Positions 18,652-33,299 of a DNA stretch of 64,000 bases are shown piece by piece. A program made the position numbers and the translations under genes. Position 1 is the first letter of the stretch. Every line of letters starts with the position of its first letter. The notes beneath the pieces are model-generated. The model made no database searches. It was not told where the DNA came from and saw nothing but the letters and a program-made list of their open reading frames with translations. The stretch is taken from assembly GCA_965203905.1 (NCBI GenBank), contig CBDBDQ010000005.1, forward strand, positions 5,280,001 through 5,344,000, given 5' to 3'. Source of the DNA: Spirochaetia bacterium (lineage in GTDB: Bacteria > Spirochaetota > Spirochaetia > SZUA-6 > Bin103).

Positions 18652-18977
18652 TCAGGGAACGCCGGCGCGGGTCACGGTAGCCGGCGGCTCCCCAACCGGA
18701 AGTTCCCACAGCGCGTCGAGCGCCGCTGTCACGTTCAGCGACTCGCCGTACCACTCGGGGGTAGCGGTGTGCGGCCCGATGCGAATGCCGGCCCCCGCCA
18801 GCCGCGCCACGGTCGGCGCCAGCGGGTCCCCGCCACCCTTCCACCGTGGCGCCGGCGGCACCGCCGGCAACGGCGCGCCATCCGGGCGCAGGAACTGGAA
18901 CCCCCCTGCGCCATTGGCGACTACCTGAAAGCCTCCTCGTGCAGCGCGCGGTGATGGAATCGGCACACGAGGCGTAA
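18652..18977 (-). pseudogene. C-terminal fragment of the DUF222/HNH nuclease gene split by the 12.3-kb insertion
   Basis: Minus strand from 18977 reads TTA CGC CTC GTG TGC CGA TTC CAT CAC (LRLVCRFHHRALHEE), continuing the HNH motif from 31319. A 1-bp frameshift near 18932 leads into the GFQVV...FLRPDG...PEWYGE tail. Confidence 0.8.
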
Positions 18978-19001
18978 TGCGAAGCGTCACATTATGAGAA
19001 G
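18975..19001. repeat. Orphan RIT-type terminal repeat
   Basis: TAATGCGAAG-CGTCAC-ATTATGAGAAG has the same length and pattern as the RIT end TAATGTAAAG-TGCGGG-ATTATGTGAAG (25387-25413). Confidence 0.65.
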
Positions 19002-19005
19002 GAGT

Positions 19006-19075
19006 CTATCCGAGCTGGCCGCGCGAACGGCTGGCGCGCTGGCCGTTGCCCCGTGGCCGGGGCCAGTTCGGATAG
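19006..19075. repeat. 70-bp branched hairpin (copy 1)
   Basis: CTATCCGAGCTGGCC...GGCCAGTTCGGATAG basal stem with two internal hairpins. Confidence 0.75.
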
Positions 19076-19335
19076 GGTTGATTGAACTAAACCGCGCGCC
19101 TATGGAGATTGGAACGCCGGTATTCCGGTGGCGGCGGAGTGCTGGGCGTGCTCGGGCAGGCGGGAACTCGCGGAGCAGAACGGGGAGCTGGGTGACAGCG
19201 CCGCATGACAAGGCGGCGACGAGCGGTTGACGGGCAGATCGCGACCGGCGCCGCGCAGGGGTGCGCAGGAGCAACGGCACGGCGGCGCGAAGGGATGCGT
19301 GATGAGATCGAACCGACGGTGTTCTGGAGATTGAG

Positions 19336-20305
19336 TCATGCGGCCTCAGGGGGAGCGCGGCGACCAGGCAGGTACTCATACTCCCAGGTGGGTTGAGAGC
19401 AGAAGTCCTGGATGCGGCGCATGGTTCCTGCATGGCACACCGGACAGCGTTGGTGATCGTCGCCGGGGGGTTCGAGAGAAACTGAGAGATCAGGTGCAGT
19501 GATCAGGTCCTGGCCGGAGGCTTGGGCAATCAGATAGCGGCACAGCGGCAGTTTTTCCTTGCGTGCACGATTGGCAAGAAAGCCGTAGTGACGAATGCGG
19601 ACGAAGCGATCGGGCAGGACGTGCAGCAGGAAACGACGCAGAAACTCGACCGCATCAAGTTTCATCATCCGGTGCCGGCGGCCACGGGCATAGTCCCGGT
19701 AGCGGAAGCTCACCGAGTCCGCGTCAGCAGCGGTGATTCTGCTGTTGGCGATGGCGACGCGATGGGTGTAGCGGGCGAGATACTTCAGCACCTGCTCGGG
19801 GCCGCCGAAGGGAGGCTTGGCATACACCACCCACTGCTTGGCGCGCAGTTGCTGGCACAGTGCGCGGAAGCGAGCGGGATCAGCCAACTCGGCAAGGGCA
19901 CCGTGGAACTGGAGTTGGTCGGCAGCGAAGCGTTGCTTGAGCGCCGCCAGCATCTTGCCGCGAAACAGCTGTGAGAGGACTCGGACCGGGAGGAAGAAAT
20001 CGTCGCGGCAGGATATCCAGGTGGCCGCGTCAGGTGCCAACCCACCGCCGGGGATGACGCAGTGGATATGAGGATGGTGCAGCAGCGTTTGGCCCCAGGT
20101 GTGCAGCACGGCGATGAAGCCGATGTCAGCGCCGAGATGCTTGGGATCGGCGGCGATGGTCCTGAGGGTAGCGGCGGTGGCAGCGAACAGGGCGCCATAG
20201 ATTTCGCGTTGGTTCTGCAGCGCCAGCGGCGCCAGTTCCGCCGGCAGGGTGAAGACGACGTGGAAATAGGGGACCGGCAGGAGATCTTGGCAGCGCTTCT
20301 CCAGC
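19336..20305 (-). pseudogene. IS91-family Y2 transposase, 3' part of the disrupted copy
   Basis: Identical to the C-terminal part of 29764-30978 (HPHIH, YLARY). Confidence 0.9.
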
Positions 20306-20428
20306 TGTTTCCAGCCAGCCGGGAGTGCCAAACCCCGCCAGTCAGCGTTGCCACGACGCGCCTGGGGCTGATGCCGAGGATCGCCAGGGTCGGGCGCGGC
20401 GACCTGAGCCGCGGCGCGCCGCGCAAGG

Positions 20429-21226
20429 TCAGTCGAAGAGGTCATCGGTGACGACGTTGGTGGAGTCGATGATGGTGATGTCGTGGGCGGCGGCATGCAG
20501 GATGGAGCGGTAGCAGAGAGCGTTGACGAGGCGCGGCACGCCGCCGGCGTGGCGGTGGATGTCCGCTTTGGCGTCATCGGCGAAGATCGAGGCCGGGCGC
20601 CCACAGCGAGCGGTGTGGTGGTCGATGTAGGAGCAGGTCTCCTGCAAGGTCAGGGGCGGCATGTGATAGGAGATGCGGATGCGCTGACGGACGGCAGCGA
20701 AGGGAGCGTACTTGAGCAATTCGCGCAGTTCGGGCTGGCCGGCGAGGACGAAGGTGATGGCGGTGCGGGAGTCGAAGTGAAAGTTCACCATGCCCTTGAT
20801 GGCGGTGAGAGCGGTGCCGGCGAGGTCCTGAGCGTCATCGATGACGACGACCGGTCTCCGGTTCAGTTCGGGAATGGTCTTGAAGAACAGTTGGCTGGCC
20901 TGGCCGGAGAAGAAGGGGGGATCGATCTTGAGACCTTCGAGGACCGCCTTGACCAGCCCGGCGGCGGAGAGGCCGGAGCCGCGGACGTAAAGCGGGCTGT
21001 AGCGGTTGCTGTCCAAGGCGGCGACGAAGGCGGCCAGAGCGACCGACTTGCCGCAGCCGATGGGGCCGGAGAGCAGCAGCAGGTCCTCGTCGGCGACGCC
21101 GAAGGAGAGCCGCGAGAGGGCCTCCTGGTGGGCGCTGGACGGGAAGGTGTCGGTGGGCGTGAGGTGCTTGCCGAACGGCAGGCGGGAGAAGCCGAAGAAG
21201 GAAAGGACTTGATCATGCATCGGCAT
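20429..21226 (-). CDS. ExeA/TnsC-like AAA+ ATPase (transposition helper)
   Basis: FGFSRLPF, Walker A GPIGCGKS, Walker B VVIDDAQ, LAGQPEL, RQRI; start re-called (RBS AGGAG). Confidence 0.88.
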   Translation of the reverse strand: MPMHDQVLSFFGFSRLPFGKHLTPTDTFPSSAHQEALSRLSFGVADEDLLLLSGPIGCGKSVALAAFVAALDSNRYSPLYVRGSGLSAAGLVKAVLEGLKIDPPFFSGQASQLFFKTIPELNRRPVVVIDDAQDLAGTALTAIKGMVNFHFDSRTAITFVLAGQPELRELLKYAPFAAVRQRIRISYHMPPLTLQETCSYIDHHTARCGRPASIFADDAKADIHRHAGGVPRLVNALCYRSILHAAAHDITIIDSTNVVTDDLFD

Positions 21227-22634
21227 CGTGGTGCTCCTGGTTGTTGTTTTTGTCGTCGTCGGTGGACTGGAAGCGGGTGAACGAAGTCTGATTGCGGTCG
21301 CGCAGCGCGGCGTGGTGCTGCTCGCGCAGGCGGGTGAACCAGGCGCGCGCCGCGGCCGACACCTGCGCCGGCTTGGCGGCGGACTCGGCGGGGACGTTGG
21401 GTACCTGCGCGGTGACCTGCCTGGAGGCGCTGGTGGTCTCCAGCAGCACGCCGGATGAGTCGTAGATGGCAAGCTGTACCAGGTCGTAGGGATCGAAGCG
21501 CACCTCGACCACGGTGCCGTGGGCGACGCTGGTGACCGGATACTGATTGCCGTGCAGCTTGATCTTGCCGTACTTGCTGACGGTGCGCCGAGCGCGCCAC
21601 AGGAACAGTGCGTTGAAGGCATCGAGATCGGTGATGCGGCGATGATCGGGCGGCAGGCCGTCGCGGAAGCGGGCATCGGGACTCTGCCCGGTAGCAGAGT
21701 GGACGCGGGTGTTGTACTCCAATTCCATCCAGGCCCAGAAGGCGGAGTTCAACTCGTCGATGGTGCGCATGCCGGCGACCTGGGCCTCGCGTTGGAACTG
21801 GTTCTTGATGGTCTTGTTGGCGGCCTCGATTTTGCCCTTGCAGTAGGCCTGATAGGGCGGGTGGCGCACCCGCTTGATACGCAGCTCGACCAGGATGGCG
21901 AGCAGGTGGCGGGCGAGATAGACCTTGCCGCCGTCGACGTAGACGCGCACCGGGATGCCGTAGCGCAACAGGCAGTAGCGGAAGCTGTCGAGCAAGGCAG
22001 GCAGCTTCTCGTCGAAGTAGTATTTGCCGAACAGGATTTTGCGGGAGAAGTCGTCGAGCCACAGGAACAGGTAGGTCTTCTTGCGGCCAGCGGGAGTGTC
22101 GAGCCAGATGCCGTCGCGGGCGTCGGCCTGTACCAGAGCCAGGGTGTGGGGCGCCTCGAAGGAGCGGAAGGAGGTGCGCGCATCGTCGCCGAGCATGAGG
22201 TAGCGGGTGCTCTTGGTGAGGCCGTGGTCGGCCAGGAAGCGGTACAGGGTGCGATCCGAGATACGCTTGATCTTGGGGCCGAGCTTGGCGTCGGCGGCGA
22301 TCAGCTTGCGCAGTTGCGAGACGCTTCTGGTGGGCACTTCGTTGATCAGGTTCAGCAGCTTGGCACGCAGCGCCGGATCGTGGACCCGCGGCGAGGTGGG
22401 CCGCGGGCGGTAGAACAGCAGGCCGCGAGGTCCCTGTTTCCGATAACGGTGCAGGTAGCCGCGGATGGTACGGTCACCGACTCGGTGACGTTCCTGGTAG
22501 AGCCGTTGCTCGGCCCGTTTGTCGGCCTCCGGCAGCAGCGGATCGAGCAGTATCTCGACCAGGTGGAGGCGCTCGCTGAATGCCTCCACGACCGCGTCCG
22601 GGAGCTGCTCCCAATTGAGGTCGCCGCCGCTCAT
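21213..22634 (-). CDS. DDE (rve) transposase with Mu-transposase C-terminal domain
   Basis: QADARD, VYVDGG and KGKIE catalytic motifs; C-terminal RTVSKYGKIKLHGNQY...VRFDPYDL; ATGA-coupled start. Confidence 0.88.
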   Translation of the reverse strand: MSGGDLNWEQLPDAVVEAFSERLHLVEILLDPLLPEADKRAEQRLYQERHRVGDRTIRGYLHRYRKQGPRGLLFYRPRPTSPRVHDPALRAKLLNLINEVPTRSVSQLRKLIAADAKLGPKIKRISDRTLYRFLADHGLTKSTRYLMLGDDARTSFRSFEAPHTLALVQADARDGIWLDTPAGRKKTYLFLWLDDFSRKILFGKYYFDEKLPALLDSFRYCLLRYGIPVRVYVDGGKVYLARHLLAILVELRIKRVRHPPYQAYCKGKIEAANKTIKNQFQREAQVAGMRTIDELNSAFWAWMELEYNTRVHSATGQSPDARFRDGLPPDHRRITDLDAFNALFLWRARRTVSKYGKIKLHGNQYPVTSVAHGTVVEVRFDPYDLVQLAIYDSSGVLLETTSASRQVTAQVPNVPAESAAKPAQVSAAARAWFTRLREQHHAALRDRNQTSFTRFQSTDDDKNNNQEHHDADA

Positions 22635-23224
22635 TCGAGATCCTCGTGTTCGCCGACGACGGCGCGCCGCAGCAGCTGATCGCGGTAGTCGCACCACGCC
22701 TCGTGCAGGCACAGGCCCGCCGGGCGCGTGCAGATCTCGCGCAGCCGCTCGACCTCCTCGGCGAGCTTCTGCAGCAGCACGTCGAGGACCAGCTCCAGGT
22801 GATCGGCCTCGCTGTGCCGCGGGGTGTCGGGATCGAGGAACAACTCCAACACCCAACTGCACAGGAACGAGAGCCGGTCAGCCAGTTCTTGCAGCAGCGC
22901 TGCCAGGAGCCCGAACTCCTCCAGCAGGCACGGCGGGGTATCGAGCAGCAGAGTCAATAGCCGCTCCCGCACCAGTGCGTCCTGCCGTCCGAACGCCGTC
23001 TGCCGGCGCCAAGTGCCGGTCAGCAAGCCGGCGACGCCGGTGTGCCGGTAGCGCGCCAGCGCCTGCCACAGGTCGCGCTCATCGTCGCCGCGGCGCCGGC
23101 ACTGCTCCAGCAGCCAGCCGCGCCGGCGTGGCGGTGGCGCCGGTTCTTGCAGAATCCGTCGTATCAAAAGCAGGTGCTCTTCCAGGCGAGCCACCTGGTG
23201 GGGAGAAACCAGTATCGCATCCAC
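22631..23224 (-). CDS. Hypothetical helical protein of the transposon
   Basis: RBS GGAGG before GTG 23224; coupled to the transposase; RYRHTGVAGL resembles the transposase HTH segment RYRKQGPRGL. Confidence 0.6.
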   Translation of the reverse strand: MDAILVSPHQVARLEEHLLLIRRILQEPAPPPRRRGWLLEQCRRRGDDERDLWQALARYRHTGVAGLLTGTWRRQTAFGRQDALVRERLLTLLLDTPPCLLEEFGLLAALLQELADRLSFLCSWVLELFLDPDTPRHSEADHLELVLDVLLQKLAEEVERLREICTRPAGLCLHEAWCDYRDQLLRRAVVGEHEDLE

Positions 23225-23250
23225 GTTGATGCCTCCAAGGCGTGAGATGC

Positions 23251-23895
23251 TCAACTGGTATCGAACCAGAGCCAGTACCGTAAGACCTGATTCAATGGTA
23301 GTGCCAGCGGGCTGCGGGCGCGCACCACCACGTAGCACAGACGCAGGCAGCCGATGACCCCGAGCGCGCCGCCTCGACCCTGGGCGCGGCGTCTGGCAAG
23401 CGCGAGCGCTACCAGGTAACGATGCAACTCAGCCAAGCCGCTTCCGCCGGCGCGCACCTCAGGCAGCGCCGCGAATGGCGCCAACTCCGCCAGCAGTGCG
23501 CTTGCCGCCAGCGTGCTGGTCGCGATCAGGTGCCCTACCCACTCCAGATGACGCGTTATGGTGTGCTCGCAGAAGCTGCCGATCACGCCCGCAGCGCGCT
23601 CATAGGCCAGCTTGATGCCGACCTCCGGCCCCTTCGGATGCCGTGCCACCAGCTGGTGCAGGTTCATCGCCAGGTCCAGCCGGATGTTGCATTCCGGGAT
23701 CACGAACCACGGCAGCATGCGCTTGGTGTATTGCTTGCCCTGTCGCCGCGCCTTCTCACAGATGCACGACAGGATCAGAATCCGGTGGTTCCTGCCATCC
23801 GCGCAGCGCACCAGACGCTCACACCAGGCGTGGATGCGCAACGCATGCACACACCCGCACAGCAGGCATGGGTGCTGCGCGGCGGCGCCGGTCAC
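23251..23895 (-). CDS. DUF6431-like Zn-finger protein of the transposon
   Basis: CLLCG...H...C...LPWFVIP pattern; first gene inside the element. Confidence 0.6.
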   Translation of the reverse strand: MTGAAAQHPCLLCGCVHALRIHAWCERLVRCADGRNHRILILSCICEKARRQGKQYTKRMLPWFVIPECNIRLDLAMNLHQLVARHPKGPEVGIKLAYERAAGVIGSFCEHTITRHLEWVGHLIATSTLAASALLAELAPFAALPEVRAGGSGLAELHRYLVALALARRRAQGRGGALGVIGCLRLCYVVVRARSPLALPLNQVLRYWLWFDTS

Positions 23896-24103
23896 CGTCG
23901 CCAGATATACTTGAATGTCGAAACCTGCAAGGTTAGGATGTGCCAGTTCTCTTGGTGGGGGTCACCGTGTACCGGGCAAAGTACAGGCGGTGGCCCCTAT
24001 CTCTTTTCTTGGTCTCCGGAACCGCTTCCGGGCGAACCTATCCTATCCCTGCTGGCGGGGTTGTACAGAACCAGGAACTCTCACTTGGCGGGCAACATCC
24101 AGC

Positions 24104-24348
24104 CACTTGGCGCGCTGCTGCGCCTGGCACTTCGGACAGTGACGATTGCGGCAGGAGTTGTACGATACGCGTAGTTCACCACAGGCGTCGCAAGCATCGA
24201 CGTGGCCGCCGAGCTTGGCAGTACGGCAGGCTGTGAGGTCGCGCATGACGCGCTGTTGTGCCTGCGACACCCGCAAGCCTGGCACGCGACCGTCGGTAGT
24301 GGCCAGGGTACGGATGACGTCGGCCACCTCGAAGGGTGGCTGGTGCAC
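24104..24348 (-). pseudogene. IS91-family transposase, 5' part (Zn-binding domain) of the disrupted copy
   Basis: CRTAKLGGH, SCRNRHCPKCQ, identical to the start of 29764-30978. Confidence 0.9.
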
Positions 24349-24355
24349 GGATCGC

Positions 24356-25198
24356 TCAGCGCAGCGGTGGCAACGACTCCAGTGGGCTCTCGACTGCGCT
24401 GATGCGCTTGCGGGTGACGTGGGTATAGATCACGGTACTCCTGATCGAGGCATGTCCGAGCAGCGCCTGGACGGTGCGCAGATCGGTGCCGGATTCCAGC
24501 AGGTGGGTGGCGAAACAGTGGCGCAAGGTATGCGGGGATACGGGCTTGCCGGCGACGACGTGGCGCACCTTGGCGATGGCCTGCGCCACCGCATCCCTGG
24601 TGACGTGGCGGTCGCGATAGGTCCTGCTGGGAAACAGCCAGTGGCGGGGCCGATAGCGTCGGTAGTGGCAGCGCAAGTGGTGCAGCAGGAGCGGCGCCAA
24701 GGTCACCAAACGATCCTTGCGGCCCTTGCCTTGCACGACGTGCAGCAGCATCCGCTCGCTGTCGATATCGGTAATCCGCAGGGAGACCGCCTCGGAAACG
24801 CGCAGCCCGGCGGCATACAGGGTCATGGCAATGACGCGGTGCTGCGGGTTGGTGATCGCATCGAGTACGGCGCGCACCTGGTCCTGGCTCAAGACCAGCG
24901 GCAGCTTCTTGGGCTGCTTGGCGAACGGGATGGACTCGATGTGCCAGTCCTTGCCGAGGGTCTTGAGGTACAGGAAGCGGAGAGCGCAGACCGCCTGATT
25001 GAAGCTGCCCCAGCCCAGATTTCGCTCCTGCACCAGATGCAGTTGATAGGCTCGTATTTCGTCGAGCCCGAGCAGTTCCGGAGAGCGGTTGAAGTAGCGC
25101 GCAAACAACGCGACCTGGCGGACGTAGTACTCGATGGTGTGCGGGGACAGGTTGCGCACCCGCATGTCTTCGATCATTCTCTGGCGCAGTGGTGTCAT
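24356..25198 (-). CDS. Tyrosine recombinase (IS91-associated integrase), copy 1
   Basis: GLRVSE, KGRKDR, HTLRH, LGHASIRSTVIY; start MTPLRQRM with RBS AGGAG. Confidence 0.92.
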   Translation of the reverse strand: MTPLRQRMIEDMRVRNLSPHTIEYYVRQVALFARYFNRSPELLGLDEIRAYQLHLVQERNLGWGSFNQAVCALRFLYLKTLGKDWHIESIPFAKQPKKLPLVLSQDQVRAVLDAITNPQHRVIAMTLYAAGLRVSEAVSLRITDIDSERMLLHVVQGKGRKDRLVTLAPLLLHHLRCHYRRYRPRHWLFPSRTYRDRHVTRDAVAQAIAKVRHVVAGKPVSPHTLRHCFATHLLESGTDLRTVQALLGHASIRSTVIYTHVTRKRISAVESPLESLPPLR

Positions 25199-25518
25199 GA
25201 TGGACTCCTCCTGGTGTAGAGACGCGTGGTCCATCAGCCCCCGGAGCGCCGTTACGCTCCGGGGGCAACCACCCATCTCCCGTTAGTAGAGGTCAGACAC
25301 CATATAGGGGTTGTACGTGGGAAGGGCTCCGCGCCTCGAGACGGCCGACGCCACCCCTACCGCGAAGCGGTTTAGTTCTAGTCAGCTAATGTAAAGTGCG
25401 GGATTATGTGAAGTAGATGGCAGGACGGGTCCATTTGATGGGCTCCAGGCAGCATTAGCGGGTAATTGCGGTAGCCAGGACTTCGCATTATCGCGCTCCT
25501 TCAAGCAAGGAGGCATCC

Positions 25519-26748
25519 ATGCTTGAAGACCATCTCAAGTTGGCGAGCACTTGTCGCAGACTCCGTCGTGGGCCCGCGTGCGCGTATATAGACGGCTTCG
25601 CCGACTGGCTCCATGAGCGCGGCTATCAAGCCAAGTTTGTCCTGCGTACGTTGGCGGGATGGACCGACTGGCTCACCGCGAAATCGTTTACTGATGAGGC
25701 TTTCGTAGCCGGGTACGAGGCGTGCCGGAAGGAGTTGTCTGAGCGAGGCCGTGTCCGCTATCAGCGGGGACCCAACCGAAATTCACTGTGGGCCGCCACG
25801 GTGTTCATCCGGTTCTTGCGGGAGCAGGGCGTCGTGGCCGTCGAGCAGCGGCTGATTCTGAGCGAACGCTGGCCACTGCTGAAGCAGTTTCGGCAGTGGA
25901 TGCTGCAACACCGAGGCGTGACACACAGCACCATGGACGGCTACGAGCGCTACGTAGCCGATTTCATCGAGGCTCTGGGAGTTGTTCCGGCGCACTACAG
26001 CGCCGCTGCGGTGCGCGGCTTTGTGATCAAGCGCTGTGACGGTCATAAGGTCAAAACGGCTCAGTCGATCACCACGGCGGTGCGTGCCTTCTTGCGGTTC
26101 CTCGCCGCCACCGGGCAGTGCTGCGACGGCCTGCGGCACGCGGTGCCACGCTTCGCGTGCTACCAGCTCGCCGCCACGCCGCGGTTCCTTGAGCCTGAGG
26201 ATCTGGAGAAGGTAGTCGCCAGTTGCACCGATGAGGATGCAGTTGGGGCCAGAGATCGGGCGGTAGTCCTGCTGCTCGCTCGGCTAGGCCTGCGCGCCAG
26301 CGAGGTCGCCGAGCTGACCTTCGATGCGGTCGACTGGCAGCACGGGCGCATCGCCGTCTGCGGCAAGGGTCGGCGCCAACACTGGCTGCCGCTTCCGCAG
26401 CAGGTCGGCGACGCCATCGTCACCTATCTGCGCCGCGGACGCCCGCCGTTGCCGGTGCCACAGGTGTTCATCTCGGCTGTGGCGCCGCGTCGCCCGATGA
26501 CTCGACAAGCCGTGTCCGGTGTCGTGTGCAAAGCTCTCCGTCGCGCAGGCATCAAGGCGCCCCACCACGGTGCACATCTGCTGCGCCATTCGGCCGCCAC
26601 CGCCATGCTGCGCAACGGGGTGTCCCTGGCCGGTATCGGCAGTGTCCTGAGGCACCGCTCCCCGCAGACCACCGCCCACTACGCCAAGATCGACTTCGAG
26701 CTGCTGGGCGAAATCGCCCAGCCGTGGCCGGAGGCACCATCATGCTGA
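25519..26748 (+). CDS. ritA: RIT tyrosine recombinase A
   Basis: LARLGLRASEV, HLLRHS, HRSPQTTAHYAK. Confidence 0.88.
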   Translation: MLEDHLKLASTCRRLRRGPACAYIDGFADWLHERGYQAKFVLRTLAGWTDWLTAKSFTDEAFVAGYEACRKELSERGRVRYQRGPNRNSLWAATVFIRFLREQGVVAVEQRLILSERWPLLKQFRQWMLQHRGVTHSTMDGYERYVADFIEALGVVPAHYSAAAVRGFVIKRCDGHKVKTAQSITTAVRAFLRFLAATGQCCDGLRHAVPRFACYQLAATPRFLEPEDLEKVVASCTDEDAVGARDRAVVLLLARLGLRASEVAELTFDAVDWQHGRIAVCGKGRRQHWLPLPQQVGDAIVTYLRRGRPPLPVPQVFISAVAPRRPMTRQAVSGVVCKALRRAGIKAPHHGAHLLRHSAATAMLRNGVSLAGIGSVLRHRSPQTTAHYAKIDFELLGEIAQPWPEAPSC

Positions 26749-27653
26749 ACGACCACGTAGAGCGCTATCTCATGCTGCGGCGATCCCTCGGTTACAAGCT
26801 GCGGGACACAGCCCGCCATCTCCAGGCGTTCGCAGGTTTCGCCAGCGACAGGGGCGATACCCATGTCCGCGCCGCTACCGCCGTGGAGTGGGCAGCGCAG
26901 GCGTCCTCGCCGCTCATGCGCCATGTTCGACTCCATGACGTCGTCCTGTTGGCCCGCTTCTTGTACGCCGAGGACGCGACCCACGAGATACCCCCAGCTC
27001 GCTACTTCCAGGTCCGTGTGGTGCGCCAGCCGCCCTACATCTACACGCCGGCTGAGATCGGCCAACTGCTGGTGGCGGCGCACCGTCTGCCCTGCTCCTA
27101 CGCGCTGCGCCGGCCCGTCTATGCGACCCTGATCGGGCTCATCGCCGCCACCGGACTGCGGGTCTCGGAGGCGCTCGACCTACGCTTCGACGACCTGCTT
27201 CCCAACGCCGTTCTGCGCATCCGCCAAACCAAGTTCGCCAAGAGCCGACTGGTGCCGCTGCATGCGACCTCGGTCGACGCACTGACTGCGTACTTGCAGG
27301 AGCGGCAGCGCTTCGCCAGCGCCGACGACCATCTGTTCGTGTCAGCGAACCGCCGGCGCATCCCGACACCAATGGCCAGTACTACCTTCCAAAAAGTGAT
27401 CCGGCTCGCAGGCATCGCTCCTGGCCGCCAGCGCCGCCCCCGACTGGCGGATCTGCGTCACACCTTTGCCACCAGATCCCTGCAACGCTGTGCGGTCCAG
27501 CGCGATTCGGTGGCGCGCCACTTGGTCGCGCTCTCCACCTACCTCGGTCACGCTAGCCCCGCCTACACCTACTGGTACTTGGAGGCGACCCCGGAATTGA
27601 TGGCCGACATCGCCACGGCCGGCGAGAACCTGGTTGCCGGGAGGTTGGCATGA
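26742..27653 (+). CDS. ritB: RIT tyrosine recombinase B
   Basis: RRSLGYKL, TGLRVSEA, TKFAKSRLVPLH, LSTYLGH...TYWYL; start re-called at ATG 26742. Confidence 0.88.
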   Translation: MLNDHVERYLMLRRSLGYKLRDTARHLQAFAGFASDRGDTHVRAATAVEWAAQASSPLMRHVRLHDVVLLARFLYAEDATHEIPPARYFQVRVVRQPPYIYTPAEIGQLLVAAHRLPCSYALRRPVYATLIGLIAATGLRVSEALDLRFDDLLPNAVLRIRQTKFAKSRLVPLHATSVDALTAYLQERQRFASADDHLFVSANRRRIPTPMASTTFQKVIRLAGIAPGRQRRPRLADLRHTFATRSLQRCAVQRDSVARHLVALSTYLGHASPAYTYWYLEATPELMADIATAGENLVAGRLA

Positions 27654-28642
27654 CTCCCATCGCACCCCTGATCACCCACTTCCTGCGCGACTACCTCCCT
27701 GTGGAGCGCGGCTATAGCCCGCATACCTGCGAGAGCTACGCCTATGCCTTCCGTCTGTTGTTCACCTTCGCCGCCGAACGCCTCGGCGTCAGACCGTCGG
27801 CGCTTCACCTTGAACATCTCGACGCACCGCTCATCGTCGCTTTCCTGACCCACTTCGAGGTGGATCGTGGTGGCAGCCCCGCCAGCCGCAACGTCCGCCT
27901 GGCAGCAGTGAAAGCCTTCATGCGCTATGTCGAGTTCCGCCACCCGGCGGCACTCGACATAGCCAGGCAGATCCTCGCCATCCCCTCCAAGCGCCATGAT
28001 CAGCCGCTCGTCCGCCACCTCACCATGGACCAGATCAACGCGATTCTGGACGCTCCCGATACCTCCACCCGGTTCGGCATCCGCGACCGCGCCATGCTCC
28101 ATCTGTGTTTCGCCGCTGCGCTGCGCGTGTCCGAACTGGTGACGGCGCAGGTAGCAGATCTGTCGCTGCGCGGAACTGCGAGTATCCGAGTCCTTGGCAA
28201 GGGCCGCCGTGAGCGCTGTCTCCCGCTGTGGAAGCAGACCACCGCTGACCTGCGCGCTTGGCTCGCCGTGCGCGGAGAGGTTTCCACGCCTGAGCTGTTT
28301 CTGAACGCTACCGACAGGCCGATGGGTCGCGCCGGGTTCAAGCACCTCCTGAACAAGCATGTGCGCGCTGCCGTAGCGGACTGCCCCTCGCTGGCCGGAC
28401 GCTCGATCTCGCCTCACCAGCTCCGCCACAGCTGCGCCGTCATCTTGCTCCAGGCTACCGGTGATATCCGCAAGGTGGCACTGTGGTTGGGGCATGCCGA
28501 TGTGCGCACCACCGAAGTCTATCTACGCGTCGATCCCACCGAGAAGTTGGAGGCCGTCGAAGCCGTGCTGCCACCGGAACTACGTCGCGGTCGTTTCAAA
28601 GCCCCTGACGCTCTGATCGCCGCGCTCCTGGACCCGAGATAA
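27650..28642 (+). CDS. ritC: RIT tyrosine recombinase C
   Basis: SPHTCESY, RNVRLAA, GKGRRER, HQLRHS, LGHADVRTTEVY. Confidence 0.88.
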   Translation: MTPIAPLITHFLRDYLPVERGYSPHTCESYAYAFRLLFTFAAERLGVRPSALHLEHLDAPLIVAFLTHFEVDRGGSPASRNVRLAAVKAFMRYVEFRHPAALDIARQILAIPSKRHDQPLVRHLTMDQINAILDAPDTSTRFGIRDRAMLHLCFAAALRVSELVTAQVADLSLRGTASIRVLGKGRRERCLPLWKQTTADLRAWLAVRGEVSTPELFLNATDRPMGRAGFKHLLNKHVRAAVADCPSLAGRSISPHQLRHSCAVILLQATGDIRKVALWLGHADVRTTEVYLRVDPTEKLEAVEAVLPPELRRGRFKAPDALIAALLDPR

Positions 28643-28913
28643 TGTGCAGCGATCTTGGACACAACTTACTTTCCTGGCAGGAGTTAAGTAGCGCTACTTT
28701 ACATAATCCCGCACTTCACATTAGAGGATCATTGAACTAAACCGCTTCGCGGTAGGGGTGGCGTCGGCCGTCTCGAGGCGCGGAGCCCTTCCCACGTACA
28801 ACCCCTATATGGTGTCTGACCTCTACTAACGGGAGATGGGTGGTTGCCCCCGGAGCGTAACGGCGCTCCGGGGGCTGATGGACCACGCGTCTCTACACCA
28901 GGAGGAGTCCATC

Positions 28914-29756
28914 ATGACACCACTGCGCCAGAGAATGATCGAAGACATGCGGGTGCGCAACCTGTCCCCGCACACCATCGAGTACTACGTCCGCCAGGTC
29001 GCGTTGTTTGCGCGCTACTTCAACCGCTCTCCGGAACTGCTCGGGCTCGACGAAATACGAGCCTATCAACTGCATCTGGTGCAGGAGCGAAATCTGGGCT
29101 GGGGCAGCTTCAATCAGGCGGTCTGCGCTCTCCGCTTCCTGTACCTCAAGACCCTCGGCAAGGACTGGCACATCGAGTCCATCCCGTTCGCCAAGCAGCC
29201 CAAGAAGCTGCCGCTGGTCTTGAGCCAGGACCAGGTGCGCGCCGTACTCGATGCGATCACCAACCCGCAGCACCGCGTCATTGCCATGACCCTGTATGCC
29301 GCCGGGCTGCGCGTTTCCGAGGCGGTCTCCCTGCGGATTACCGATATCGACAGCGAGCGGATGCTGCTGCACGTCGTGCAAGGCAAGGGCCGCAAGGATC
29401 GTTTGGTGACCTTGGCGCCGCTCCTGCTGCACCACTTGCGCTGCCACTACCGACGCTATCGGCCCCGCCACTGGCTGTTTCCCAGCAGGACCTATCGCGA
29501 CCGCCACGTCACCAGGGATGCGGTGGCGCAGGCCATCGCCAAGGTGCGCCACGTCGTCGCCGGCAAGCCCGTATCCCCGCATACCTTGCGCCACTGTTTC
29601 GCCACCCACCTGCTGGAATCCGGCACCGATCTGCGCACCGTCCAGGCGCTGCTCGGACATGCCTCGATCAGGAGTACCGTGATCTATACCCACGTCACCC
29701 GCAAGCGCATCAGCGCAGTCGAGAGCCCACTGGAGTCGTTGCCACCGCTGCGCTGA
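28914..29756 (+). CDS. Tyrosine recombinase (IS91-associated integrase), copy 2
   Basis: Identical translation to 24356-25198. Confidence 0.92.
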   Translation: MTPLRQRMIEDMRVRNLSPHTIEYYVRQVALFARYFNRSPELLGLDEIRAYQLHLVQERNLGWGSFNQAVCALRFLYLKTLGKDWHIESIPFAKQPKKLPLVLSQDQVRAVLDAITNPQHRVIAMTLYAAGLRVSEAVSLRITDIDSERMLLHVVQGKGRKDRLVTLAPLLLHHLRCHYRRYRPRHWLFPSRTYRDRHVTRDAVAQAIAKVRHVVAGKPVSPHTLRHCFATHLLESGTDLRTVQALLGHASIRSTVIYTHVTRKRISAVESPLESLPPLR

Positions 29757-29763
29757 GCGATCC

Positions 29764-30978
29764 GTGCACCAGCCACCCTTCGAGGTGGCCGACGTCATCC
29801 GTACCCTGGCCACTACCGACGGTCGCGTGCCAGGCTTGCGGGTGTCGCAGGCACAACAGCGCGTCATGCGCGACCTCACAGCCTGCCGTACTGCCAAGCT
29901 CGGCGGCCACGTCGATGCTTGCGACGCCTGTGGTGAACTACGCGTATCGTACAACTCCTGCCGCAATCGTCACTGTCCGAAGTGCCAGGCGCAGCAGCGC
30001 GCCAAGTGGCTGGAGAAGCGCTGCCAAGATCTCCTGCCGGTCCCCTATTTCCACGTCGTCTTCACCCTGCCGGCGGAACTGGCGCCGCTGGCGCTGCAGA
30101 ACCAACGCGAAATCTATGGCGCCCTGTTCGCTGCCACCGCCGCTACCCTCAGGACCATCGCCGCCGATCCCAAGCATCTCGGCGCTGACATCGGCTTCAT
30201 CGCCGTGCTGCACACCTGGGGCCAAACGCTGCTGCACCATCCTCATATCCACTGCGTCATCCCCGGCGGTGGGTTGGCACCTGACGCGGCCACCTGGATA
30301 TCCTGCCGCGACGATTTCTTCCTCCCGGTCCGAGTCCTCTCACAGCTGTTTCGCGGCAAGATGCTGGCGGCGCTCAAGCAACGCTTCGCTGCCGACCAAC
30401 TCCAGTTCCACGGTGCCCTTGCCGAGTTGGCTGATCCCGCTCGCTTCCGCGCACTGTGCCAGCAACTGCGCGCCAAGCAGTGGGTGGTGTATGCCAAGCC
30501 TCCCTTCGGCGGCCCCGAGCAGGTGCTGAAGTATCTCGCCCGCTACACCCATCGCGTCGCCATCGCCAACAGCAGAATCACCGCTGCTGACGCGGACTCG
30601 GTGAGCTTCCGCTACCGGGACTATGCCCGTGGCCGCCGGCACCGGATGATGAAACTTGATGCGGTCGAGTTTCTGCGTCGTTTCCTGCTGCACGTCCTGC
30701 CCGATCGCTTCGTCCGCATTCGTCACTACGGCTTTCTTGCCAATCGTGCACGCAAGGAAAAACTGCCGCTGTGCCGCTATCTGATTGCCCAAGCCTCCGG
30801 CCAGGACCTGATCACTGCACCTGATCTCTCAGTTTCTCTCGAACCCCCCGGCGACGATCACCAACGCTGTCCGGTGTGCCATGCAGGAACCATGCGCCGC
30901 ATCCAGGACTTCTGCTCTCAACCCACCTGGGAGTATGAGTACCTGCCTGGTCGCCGCGCTCCCCCTGAGGCCGCATGA
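29764..30978 (+). CDS. IS91-family (Y2/HUH) transposase
   Basis: Zn domain SCRNRHCPKCQ, YFHVVFTLP, HUH HPHIH, Y2 YLARY, RIRHYGFL. Confidence 0.92.
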   Translation: MHQPPFEVADVIRTLATTDGRVPGLRVSQAQQRVMRDLTACRTAKLGGHVDACDACGELRVSYNSCRNRHCPKCQAQQRAKWLEKRCQDLLPVPYFHVVFTLPAELAPLALQNQREIYGALFAATAATLRTIAADPKHLGADIGFIAVLHTWGQTLLHHPHIHCVIPGGGLAPDAATWISCRDDFFLPVRVLSQLFRGKMLAALKQRFAADQLQFHGALAELADPARFRALCQQLRAKQWVVYAKPPFGGPEQVLKYLARYTHRVAIANSRITAADADSVSFRYRDYARGRRHRMMKLDAVEFLRRFLLHVLPDRFVRIRHYGFLANRARKEKLPLCRYLIAQASGQDLITAPDLSVSLEPPGDDHQRCPVCHAGTMRRIQDFCSQPTWEYEYLPGRRAPPEAA

Positions 30979-31238
30979 CTCAATCTCCAGAACACCGTCG
31001 GTTCGATCTCATCACGCATCCCTTCGCGCCGCCGTGCCGTTGCTCCTGCGCACCCCTGCGCGGCGCCGGTCGCGATCTGCCCGTCAACCGCTCGTCGCCG
31101 CCTTGTCATGCGGCGCTGTCACCCAGCTCCCCGTTCTGCTCCGCGAGTTCCCGCCTGCCCGAGCACGCCCAGCACTCCGCCGCCACCGGAATACCGGCGT
31201 TCCAATCTCCATAGGCGCGCGGTTTAGTTCAATCAACC

Positions 31239-31308
31239 CTATCCGAACTGGCCCCGGCCACGGGGCAACGGCCAGCGCGCCAGCCGTTCGCGCGGCCAGC
31301 TCGGATAG
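31239..31308. repeat. 70-bp branched hairpin (copy 2)
   Basis: CTATCCGAACTGGCC / GGCCAGCTCGGATAG (14/15 paired); inner GCCCCG-GCCA-CGGGGC and AACGGC-N10-GCCGTT hairpins. Confidence 0.75.
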
Positions 31309-31318
31309 ACTCCTTCTC

Positions 31319-32886
31319 AAATTGCTGAGCTCTGTCGCCCCGCCGTCCGCCCAATGCACGACGTGATGGGCGTCGCAGTGGCGGGAGTTGCAGCCGGGAA
31401 ACTGACAGCCGTTGCGATCCCGGCCTTCGAGAGCACGGCGCATCGCGGTCGGAACCGTCCGGGTCCGGCGCCCCACGTCGAGTACGCCGCCGTCGGGGGC
31501 GTGGATCAGCACCAACCCCCCGGAGTCGCAGCCGATGCGGCGTGCGGCGTGCTTGCCCAGGTGGATGCCTCCAGCCTGCTCAATTACCGCCTGGCCGGCG
31601 TCAAGGCCGGATCCCGCCGCGGCGTGGTGGTGAGCGTCCGCGGTGTCGACATGCGTCTGGCCCGCAACGGCATCCGCCGGCGCCGCAGGTCCCGAGGCCG
31701 CTTCGCGGGCCGCCTGCGTTTCCGCGGAAGTGGCCGCCGTGGGGGCGTCCACCGCGGGACCTTCACGTCCCGCGGCCGCCGGGCAGGTCGCGGACGTTTC
31801 CGCGGAAGTGTCCACTGTAGCGGCGTTCGCCGCGGGGTGTGCAGGTTCCGGGACCGTCGGGCGGGTCGCGCGCGATGCCGCGAAAAGGTCCGCGATGGCC
31901 GCGTTCGCCGTGGGGGCTGCAGGTTCCGGGGACACTGGGCGGATCGTGTGCGTTTCCGCGGAAGTGTCTGCCGTGGCGTTGATGGGCTCGCTGGAGCGAA
32001 GGGTCTCCGCTTCGACGTGCACGGTTACCTGGAAGCGGTCGCCGGGCCTGCCCGGATCGAGCCCGCCGGCCAGCGCGCTCTCGGCCACCAGCCCCAGCGC
32101 ATCCGCACGCCGCTGCGCGATGCCCGCTTCTTCTCCCTCGGCCCCCGCCGGCACCTGCTCCAGCGCCGCCTCCAGGGCGCGCAGCACTACCGCGCCCACC
32201 TCGGGAGTCAGCCGCGCCCGCAGCACCACCATACCATCCTCGTCCACCCGCGTGCTCAGCGCGCGTCGCGCCAGGCGCGCCTTCTCGGCGTCCGGCAACG
32301 CCTCCCGGTCCGCCTGCCGCCACGCACGCACCAGGCGCTCCACCTGCGCGCCGGTGGCACAGCAGGCAATGGCGACCAGGTGCGCCTCGTTGTCGGGGGT
32401 AGCCACCCGCGTCAGGCCGCGTACCACGGAATAGGACAGCCGGCCGCAGGCCATGGCCGCGGAAAGGTGGTTGAGATCGGCCAGGGCGGCGGCGACGCGC
32501 AGCTTCTCGCGCGCGGCGCCCAGGTCGAGGCCGGTGCGCCAGTTGAGCCAGTGCGCACAGGAGCGGAAGCCCTCCCAGCCGTAATGGCAGTCGAACTCGC
32601 GCAGGTAGCAAAGCAACTCGTAGGTGGCGGCCTGGATGCGCGCGGACAGCTCCGCGATGCAGTTGCCGAGCCGGCCCAGGTCGGGTGGTTGCTGCGGATC
32701 GGACGGCGCCGGGCGCTCGCTGTCGGCGGCGGCGGGCGCGCTCACGGCACCGGCGGGCGGAGTCCCAGTTGTGACTGGCGCTTCCAACGTGGTGGCCGCC
32801 GTGACCGCGGTCGGCTCGGTGGTCGCCGAGTCGGGCGAAGCTGTCGGGATCGGCGGGCAGGCAAGGGTGCTGGTGCGGGGTGTCAT
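31319..32886 (-). pseudogene. DUF222 (13E12-like)/HNH endonuclease, N-terminal part, interrupted
   Basis: SCAHWLNWRTG, QRRADAL, LDVGRRTR, RDRNGCQFPGC...DAHHVVHWADGGATELSN; probable start ATG 32886. Confidence 0.85.
31720..31963. repeat. Four 78-bp (26-aa) tandem units with palindromic TTCCGCGGAA core, inside the DUF222 gene
   Basis: Cores at 31720, 31798, 31876 (degenerate) and 31954, exactly 78 bp apart; encode TSAET. Confidence 0.8.
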
Positions 32887-33299
32887 GCCACCATGGTACA
32901 CCCGGTTTCCGGCGCCCCCGTGCTGGCCAGTGGACGAGCCGATCGTCCAATTTCGGCTTTCCGACCCGATAACGGGCGCGGCGTACCGACAGCGTGCGGT
33001 GAGGGCCGAAAAGAGACCATAGTCTGCAGGGTCGGGAACATGCCGAAGTCGCGCGCTCAGATCCATGTCAACCCCTTCAGCCAAAAAACAGCGACAATTT
33101 CAGCTATTCTCGCACCCTTTGGCGGCATGGTGATCTACGAACCGGACATCGTCAGATCGAATTCGGCTGGCATCGCAGAATCGGTGCGTCTCGGCTCCGC
33201 ACTGAGCTGCATTGTCGCGGCCCATCGGGGCGCGGCATGATCCGGGTGCGAGACAAGTCAAGCTCGACACGCCGATGCAGCATGACAGTCACGACGTCT

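Follow-up and report, generated by a model that had tools for sequence, protein, structure and literature searches.

Structure of the nested locus

We analyzed a stretch of 64,000 nucleotides from the genome of a Spirochaetia bacterium (contig CBDBDQ010000005.1, positions 5,280,001 to 5,344,000; here referred to as the window), in which a single DUF222/HNH gene is interrupted by an entire block of nested mobile elements (18975-31319). Two long inverted repeats, with the arms 18990-20305 and 24098-25378 paired with 30009-31324 and 28734-30014, respectively, surround a 3.3-kb element with 31-bp terminal repeats. The arms belong to two copies of a 2.6-kb element, here named X, which encodes an IntI-like tyrosine recombinase of 306 amino acids and a Y2 transposase of 404 amino acids. 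This study deals with a 70-nt hairpin close to the right end of X and with the short sequence beyond it, which in copy 1 resembles the end of a RIT element (Table 1).

Copy 1 of X (18995-25380) is inverted and split by a 3.8-kb transposon. The central element (25387-28723) was assigned to the RIT elements since it encodes three tyrosine recombinases: PF00589 was found in all three of its open reading frames. Its true terminal repeats are located at 25387-25413 and 28697-28723. A second RIT copy in the genome shares 99.7% identity with it and directly adjoins a further copy of X (copy 3).

The N-terminal part of the interrupted gene covers positions 4-32 of the 47 positions of the HNH profile, is cut at the insertion and ends with ...HWADGGATELSN at 31321, while the C-terminal part picks up at 18974 with RLVCRFHH. 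Eight paralogous copies of the region 18704-18968 were present in the genome (78-87% identity). Joining 28724-28731 to 31320-31321 restored the codons AAT TTG ATC CTC, and when X copy 2 and its leading TT were removed in silico these codons adjoined the RIT tip.

A first-pass annotation of the window had described a 14-bp repeat, a 6-bp spacer, the hairpin, a RIT-like 27-mer and the stop of copy 2 at CTTCTCA, all of which had been located correctly.

Table 1. Features of the interrupted HNH gene and of the elements nested in it (positions in the window)
Feature	Position	Strand	Remarks
HNH endonuclease, C-terminal remnant	18654-18974	-	From translation; starts RLVCRFHHRALHEEAFR, then stop and frameshift
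20-bp near-palindrome	18975-18994		Halves TAATGCGAAG and CGTCACATTA (20-mer TAATGCGAAGCGTCACATTA); two RIT outer half-sites tail to tail
X copy 1, terminal 11 nt	18995-19005	-	ACTCCTTCTCA on the sense strand of the element; same in all 4 genomic copies
X copy 1, 70-nt hairpin	19006-19075	+ (best-folding strand, antisense to transposase)	Fold, covariation, covariance-model match of 85.7 bits
X copy 1, spacer and right 14-bp repeat	19076-19095	-	Spacer GGTTGA 19076-19081; repeat TTGAACTAAACCGC 19082-19095
X copy 1, 3' part of Y2 transposase gene	19336-20305	-	Cut by insertion; inverted-repeat arm match
3.8-kb transposon inside X copy 1	20306-24097	-	AAA_22 ATPase and rve/Mu-transposase-C gene; TGTT... 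ends; TCCAGC on both sides
X copy 1, left part	24098-25380	-	Transposase 5' end; integrase 24356-25276; terIS-like palindrome; left repeat GCGGTTTAGTTC then TA (25367-25380)
Spacer GTCAGC, X copy 1 to RIT tip	25381-25386		6 nt; compared with RIT relatives
RIT element with bipartite terminal repeats	25387-28723	+	ritA 25519-26748; ritB ~26745-27653; ritC 27650-28642
HNH gene remainder between RIT tip and X copy 2	28724-28731	-	8 nt
X copy 2, intact	28732-31319	+	Left repeat 28732-28745; integrase 28836-29756; Y2 transposase 29764-30978
X copy 2, right end	31219-31232; 31233-31238; 31239-31308; 31309-31319	+	Right repeat GCGGTTTAGTTCAA; spacer; hairpin; tail ACTCCTTCTCA
DUF222/HNH gene, N-terminal part	31320-33084	-	Interrupted; ends ...CDAHHVVHWADGGATELSN; Pfam DUF222 1.5e-15

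Genes, copies and boundaries of element X

The transposase of X matched NF033538 ('IS91 family transposase') with 446 bits at a cut-off of 125 and carried the domains PF04986 (1.7e-68) and PF14319 (3.6e-31). It is an HUH enzyme of the Y2 type with a zinc-binding N-terminal domain. In agreement with the first inspection, the hairpin is part of an element that encodes a Y2 transposase of the rolling-circle kind; the best matches of its recombinase are integron integrases.

In total, four copies of X were found in the genome, two in the window and two others with 99.8% and 91% identity. All of them have the right repeat, spacer, hairpin and tail in common and diverge past the same base (...CTCCTTCTCA). 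The left boundary was GAAC in all four copies, with TT or TA before it. The identity between copies 1 and 2 ends after ...CTTCTCA (31319), and contigs from two independent public runs end precisely at positions 28734 and 31319. From the common boundary of the four copies and the contig breaks it follows that the right 14-bp repeat is subterminal and that the true end of X lies 86-87 nt further. Eight more matches to the tail, with differing flanks, were found in three related genomes. The boundary at CTTCTCA had tentatively been ascribed to cleavage by RIT recombinases; its recurrence in the four copies and in the additional tail matches identifies it as the terminus of X itself.

On the bottom strand the left end of X reads ...ACCGCGAAGCGGTTTAGTTC, with the palindrome ACCGC GAA GCGGT followed by TTAGTTC. 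Upstream of the genes, a palindrome therefore adjoins the tetranucleotide GTTC in the manner of a terIS-type end, with the same boundary in all four copies. The hairpin of copy 2 is placed as in an oriIS-type end, 11 nt from the end of X. The tail pattern was detected in 2 of 401 genomes across the class, this genome included, and in 4 of 24 genomes within the bacterial family.

Some further observations concern the tail. Its last 19-21 nt are repeated in tandem, twice in copy 4 (G000:C5:2165848-2165889; a 21-bp duplication) and as three to four units at L086 in the related genome G018, which also has solo tail fragments. Such duplications are possibly traces of events that were aborted at the ori end. 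A metagenome scan for the tail gave one match only, in an unrelated context at a gene start: on contig L102 an exact 19-nt match is located where an unrelated gene seems to have its ribosome-binding site and start codon. AAGGAG occurs in the tail when it is read as reverse complement.

A conserved hairpin at the right end of X

In copy 1 the minimum-energy fold of the 70 nt on the + strand of the window consisted of a 15-bp basal stem and two inner hairpins. The z-score was -4.13 on this strand and -3.70 on the other, and 0 of 200 shuffled sequences folded as well in either case. A wider stretch of 151 nt around the hairpin reached a z-score of only -1.40, with 19 of 200 shuffles as good. Within this genome the hairpin was confined to the four copies of X.

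A scan of one genome per species yielded 560 relatives of the transposase, of which the best 78 loci were kept; a recombinase homologue was encoded at all 78. The layout of right repeat, long hairpin and short tail, 3' of the transposase gene, was found in relatives down to about 50% identity. For example, a Bradyrhizobium genome carried 20 identical copies of a 56%-identical relative with an equivalent right repeat, hairpin and tail. The left end of this relative is GATT followed by GAACGAAGCCGC and its tail ends with ...CTCAAGATT; one of the copies showed a direct tandem junction from tail to left end. Placement of the right repeat was tried at 44 loci, 6 of which yielded none, and 36 relatives with curated repeat positions were used. 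In all 36 a stem of 13-25 bp begins 0-6 nt past the right repeat.

RNAalifold predicted no structure for a first MAFFT alignment (A1) of 36 sequences, because one clade was aligned two columns out of register. Subsequently, a subset of 22 sequences with a hand-written structure was used, followed by a covariance model. In the MAFFT alignment of the 22 sequences the hand-written stem of 18 pairs was paired in 95.6% of the cells, compared with 74.3% in shuffled alignments (0 of 500 as high) and 32-47% in slid registers. Changes on both sides were seen in 16 of the 18 pairs.

The covariance model built from the 22 sequences matched the bottom strand just 3' of the transposase gene at 59 of 67 related loci, and within the window it matched at the two X copies only. 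In the model-fitted alignment of 57 distinct sequences, 96.4% of the cells were paired against 66.9% after shuffling (0 of 500), and 17 of 18 pairs were compensatory. Covariation next to homologous elements, which the first-pass annotation had proposed as a check by covariance model, was therefore present.

Strand bias of the pairing

The wobble pairs were distributed very unevenly between the strands. In the 22-sequence set the hairpin had 37 G·T pairs when read on the transposase-antisense strand, as opposed to 2 on the sense strand; for the 57 sequences the numbers were 74 (bottom) and 2 (top). A comparable bias linked the two terminal repeats. The comparison of left and right 14-bp repeats in 20 distinct pairs gave 249 Watson-Crick positions and 17 G·T pairs, all 17 on the bottom strand and 0 on the top, besides 14 positions of other kinds. 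When the joint of a bottom-strand circle of X was simulated, the two repeats formed a helix, the joint and the tail came to lie in an internal loop, and the hairpin followed.

Covariation and the strong strand bias together support the view, based on sequence comparison, that the hairpin behaves as a structure folding in one DNA strand; the suggestion of a folded single-stranded DNA made at the outset is borne out to this extent. The results indicate that it is the transposase-antisense strand in which the end hairpin and both terminal repeats form their pairs. The one-sided wobbles fit the bottom-strand single-stranded circle shown for IS91, and the pairing strand found here agrees independently with that finding from 2026.

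Comparison with IS91-family ends

Taken together, the hairpin is most probably the subterminal palindrome at the oriIS-side end (the right, transposase-distal end) of an IS91-family element, X. It is an ordinary but well-supported structural part of such an end. In the available text of PMC13181058, the left end, terIS, precedes orf121 and tnpA, and its single subterminal palindrome adjoins the site of cleavage, which has the sequence GTTC in IS801, IS1294 and IS1294b; the terIS tetranucleotide is GTTC or CTCG. The same text describes oriIS as the right end with one or two subterminal palindromes and an adjoining target tetranucleotide, and insertion by the bottom single-stranded circle only.

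X shares with IS91, IS801 and IS1294 the Y2 transposase with a zinc-binding N-terminal domain, a terIS-type left end with a small palindrome and GTTC upstream of the genes, subterminal palindromes at the right end and the lack of a clear target duplication. The gene order also matches that of IS91, and the strand bias fits the bottom-strand circle shown for it. In X, however, the place that orf121 occupies in IS91, before the transposase gene, is taken by the gene of an IntI-like tyrosine recombinase. Furthermore, X differs by its conserved 14-bp inverted repeats, of which the right one is set back 86 nt from the end, by one long hairpin instead of short palindromes and by its insertion at the borders of RIT-type elements. 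IS200/IS605 elements and Helitrons also belong to the HUH transposons, and their subterminal hairpins are recognized in single-stranded DNA or serve as end signals, according to the available parts of PMC5027513 and PMC4778049. In contrast to X, their transposases are of other classes (Y1 and Rep-helicase, respectively), they have no recombinase gene and they follow other strand and end rules.

By analogy with IS91, the circle, the protein that binds it and the chemistry of transposition may be pictured as follows. The transposase would nick X at the end of the tail, and the bottom strand, antisense to the transposase gene, would be displaced and closed into a single-stranded circle. In this circle the hairpin would fold and the two 14-bp repeats would pair, so that the end-to-end joint would be presented in an internal loop between two helices. 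The folded joint could then be read by the transposase for cleavage and insertion, possibly with the help of the recombinase.

Several points weigh against this explanation. On the ori side the bottom-strand flank was ATTA, ATAA, AATT or similar at 11 of 12 tail junctions; of the tetranucleotides CTTG and GTTC expected next to oriIS, only the canonical IS91 target CTTG was seen, at 1 of the 12 (L092). Neither a circle nor a tail-to-left-end tandem joint of X was seen in the contigs of the public runs, in which rare forms do not show. The designation of the strand antisense to tnpA as 'bottom' is drawn from the map terIS-orf121-tnpA-oriIS in the available text of PMC13181058. With respect to the hairpin, its length varied from 45 to 109 nt across relatives. 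The two inner hairpins are therefore not conserved, and of the three-way structure initially described the 15-bp basal stem with two inner hairpins holds for the fold of copy 1. The related sequences in the covariation tests are not independent of each other, and the alignment of 57 sequences (A3) leans towards the covariance model to which it was fitted. Finally, the G·T bias could arise from selection for pairing or from deamination of cytosine in an exposed strand, and may in part be due to deamination instead of selection. Either cause implicates the same single strand.

The pair of genes found in X is annotated as 'IS91 family transposase' and 'tyrosine-type recombinase/integrase' in the best matches listed among 388 plasmid records. 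ISfinder lists recombinase-carrying members of the IS91 family. Our literature search found no paper on a recombinase-carrying IS91 subgroup or on its ends. The boundaries given here define the real ends for a common IS91 subgroup in which the transposase is paired with a tyrosine recombinase.

RIT elements and their target in HNH genes

The 20-bp near-palindrome next to the tail of X copy 1 occurred only twice in the genome at up to three mismatches, both times by a RIT copy: once beside the tail of X copy 1 and once on the left side of X copy 3, 8 nt away. Analogous 20-mers were found adjacent to RIT elements in the genomes G001, G010, G016 and G018, which makes five with this genome, and each follows the outer half-site of the genome's own RIT.

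In 13 of 18 RIT relatives from the same bacterial family one tip lay at the N-terminal part of an HNH endonuclease ending with N-L-x-L, and the other tip was followed by 6 nt, the 20-bp palindrome and the reverse complement of the C-terminal part. Of the remaining relatives, one carried half a 20-mer, one had 20-mers on both sides, one a 20-mer together with a different flank, and in two the C-terminal part abutted directly. The palindrome was present in the same way at both RITs of this genome once X had been subtracted. A Pfam analysis of seven RIT flanks identified HNH in all seven; the match ran over profile positions 3/4-35 of 47 and broke off at the RIT tip. A tblastn search with the HNH N-terminal part of the window matched only two of the RIT-flank loci, because most RIT flanks belong to another HNH subtype.

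In this bacterial family the insertion position of RIT elements within HNH-endonuclease genes is fixed, after the N-L-x-L codons at position 35 of 47 of the Pfam HNH profile (loci L110-L152). The RIT body was found in either orientation, with the spacer and the 20-mer on the C-terminal side of the gene. In the available parts of PMC3414803 and PMC5737581 only the RIT repeats (28-9-bp or 47/51-bp) are described, and a target is not. The insertion at one HNH codon position, together with a palindrome of the element's own half-sites, offers a handle on the mechanism of RIT elements.

Additional half-sites were noted as well. A third RIT half-site (TAATGCGAAG, minus strand) is located at 25481-25490, about 95 nt inside the left end of the RIT. 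The motif TWATGYRAAG had 22 matches in the genome, 12 of which fell in the two RITs or the two 20-mers. In genome G008 (L085, L099) we found a mini-element of about 100 bp that is devoid of genes, has ends of RIT type (TAATGCGAAG... to ...CTTCACATAATCCCGCACTTCACATAA) and is adjoined by X copies on either side. This looks like a non-autonomous RIT derivative.

Insertion sites of X and the role of its recombinase

The copies of X were located at similar positions relative to RIT-type tips. Copy 1 has its tail against the tip of the 20-mer and its left end 6 nt from the RIT tip, while copy 3 has its tail at the tip of the second RIT and its left end 6 nt from the 20-mer. Both ends of copy 4 lie in a degenerate site of the same shape (tip, 6 nt, tip). 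Copy 2 has its left end 8 nt from the other RIT tip and its tail away from any tip. Among the related genomes, the tail abuts the RIT-like mini-element at L085 and an analogue of the 20-mer at L095, and the left ends at L097 and L099 are separated by 6 nt from such an analogue and from a RIT-type repeat. At L089 and L098 the tail is followed by TAATG without a full RIT-type half-site, and the left flank carries no RIT-type site.

In five of seven complete elements the left end of X, counted with its TT or TA, was exactly 6 nt from a RIT-type tip; a sixth element showed a distance of 8 nt. At 6 of 12 junctions the tail ran directly into TAATG or TTATG, and 4 of these 6 start a full RIT-type half-site. 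Copies 1 and 3 possibly do not represent independent events if X travelled with the RIT. Overall, X is located at an edge of tip-6 nt-tip sites, and these are shaped like a tyrosine-recombinase core.

The best family for the recombinase of X was TIGR02249 ('integron integrase') with 210 bits, below the cut-off of 265, and the best solved structure was IntI4 (2a3v, E 4e-39). A segment of about 35 residues specific to IntI (IntI4 residues 181-215) has no counterpart in X, and the identity to RitC was 30%. Due to the score below the cut-off and the unmatched segment, the enzyme is IntI-like and not an integron integrase.

The hairpin had previously been compared to attC. The analogy holds insofar as it folds in the bottom strand and X appears to be inserted at one point, on the margin of a core-like site. 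However, attC sites mark the 3' ends of promoterless cassettes that are arrayed by intI and attI; X has no cassette array, and its hairpin lies within an insertion sequence that encodes an HUH transposase. The motif GTTRRRY is absent from the hairpin, as had been noted. Since the recombinase is without the integron-specific insertion, the analogy is at most a functional one.

Such a functional analogy would allow a different division of labor, which is a possible though not a likely account. The folded bottom-strand joint would serve as an attC-like site for X's own recombinase, which would carry out the insertion of the rolling-circle product through a single exchange of strands at tyrosine-recombinase core-like sites made of two RIT tips 6 nt apart, and the Y2 transposase would only make the circle. 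This overlaps with an IS91-type transposition of X and differs from it in the inserting enzyme. The affinity to integron integrases, the recombinase homologue at every kept locus and the distances of both ends from RIT-type tips argue for it. These distances place X at the edge of a 6-bp spacer between inverted arms, which is the cutting place of such enzymes, and the pattern CATWA-N8-TWATG is rare by chance (1 unrelated site in this 8-Mb genome). Against it stand the score of the family match and the missing IntI4 segment. Moreover, the left boundary ends with GTTC as in the HUH-cleaved terIS of IS801 and IS1294, one element lies at the canonical IS91 target, and the IS91 transposase alone inserts the bottom-strand circle according to the available text of PMC13181058. 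Only 1 of the 78 loci of distant relatives lay beside RIT genes, and a strict pattern search in four genomes gave no unoccupied tip-spacer-tip site.

In the Bradyrhizobium-type clade (L020-L041, L052-L081), GATT was always found at the left and the element ends in GATT; here the element lies between GAATC and GATTC, two motifs that belong to a different repeated sequence and represent a palindromic target specific to the clade. As distant relatives are not found beside RIT genes and this clade uses GATT in a different palindromic context, target choice is clade-specific.

The data suggest, at the level of sequence, a role of the recombinase in end recognition or targeted insertion, which gives this enzyme a testable role. 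In its most complete form the model would have the HUH transposase peel off a bottom-strand circle whose ends come together, as a helix of the two repeats plus the hairpin, in an attC-like fold, and the IntI-like recombinase insert it by a single strand exchange at the edge of the 6-bp spacer of the RIT. We consider this combination speculative and rather improbable as a whole. If true, X would be a two-enzyme hybrid and a case of one mobile element landing on the core sites of another.

The seam between X and the RIT half-sites

A function of the hairpin as RNA is very unlikely. It would act as a terminator or stabilizer of the transposase transcript, or as an antisense or insulating terminator against transcription reading in, and a strong GC-rich hairpin about 260 nt 3' of the transposase stop codon would be suited to this. 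On the sense (mRNA) strand, however, the wobbles become A·C mismatches, in both sequence sets, and no run of T follows the hairpin on either strand. In addition, the same bias links terminal repeats which are 2.5 kb apart, for which a local RNA hairpin gives no explanation. A search of Rfam with the hairpin found no family at E up to 1.

In copy 1 the hairpin is followed by 27 nt that had been read as a complete, orphan RIT end. Based on the comparison of the copies, this sequence is the junction of the last 10 nt of X with the 20-bp palindrome of two RIT outer half-sites. The inner half of the 27-mer (TGAGAAGGAG) is the tail of X and present in every copy, and only the outer 20 nt are of RIT type. 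The pattern TAATGNNAAGN6ATTATGNGAAG matched 18975-19001 without mismatch, and 0 of 100 shuffles of the window matched even at up to three mismatches. This test is lenient, since the N positions were chosen after both sequences had been seen. At up to one mismatch the pattern occurred elsewhere in the 8-Mb genome only in the four true RIT repeats.

That the 27-mer is nevertheless a decayed RIT end, the two copies differing because RIT recombinases cleaved one at its outer and the other at its inner half-site, is hardly credible and already contradicted by the comparison of the copies. It does match the RIT repeat in sequence and spacing, and the X tail agrees with the RIT inner half-site in 8 of 10 positions (TGAGAAGGAG and TGTGAAGTAG). 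However, its inner half belongs to X in four of four copies, and the eight tail matches elsewhere have other flanks. The 20-mer is discrete, as it occurs by the left end of X copy 3 without the inner half, and it is a regular companion of RIT insertions. RIT terminal repeats are bipartite and bound ritABC at both ends, which does not apply to 18975-19001; the true RIT lies 6.4 kb away.

The proposal that hairpin and tail form an independent non-autonomous mini-element (MITE or REP-like) lying by chance beside X can practically be dismissed, as the short solo or duplicated tail pieces of copy 4 and G018 hold only the last 19-21 nt and no hairpin, whereas the hairpin itself occurs in this genome only inside X and keeps a fixed position relative to the right repeat, 3' of the transposase gene, across the family.

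Further features of the block

The 3.8-kb transposon that interrupts the transposase gene of X copy 1 is TniB/TniA-like by domain content. It contains two or three additional open reading frames without a Pfam match, and its termini are similar and inverted. In the N-terminal part of the DUF222/HNH gene, four tandem units of 78 nt were found at 31674-31985, with 65-72% identity to the first copy.

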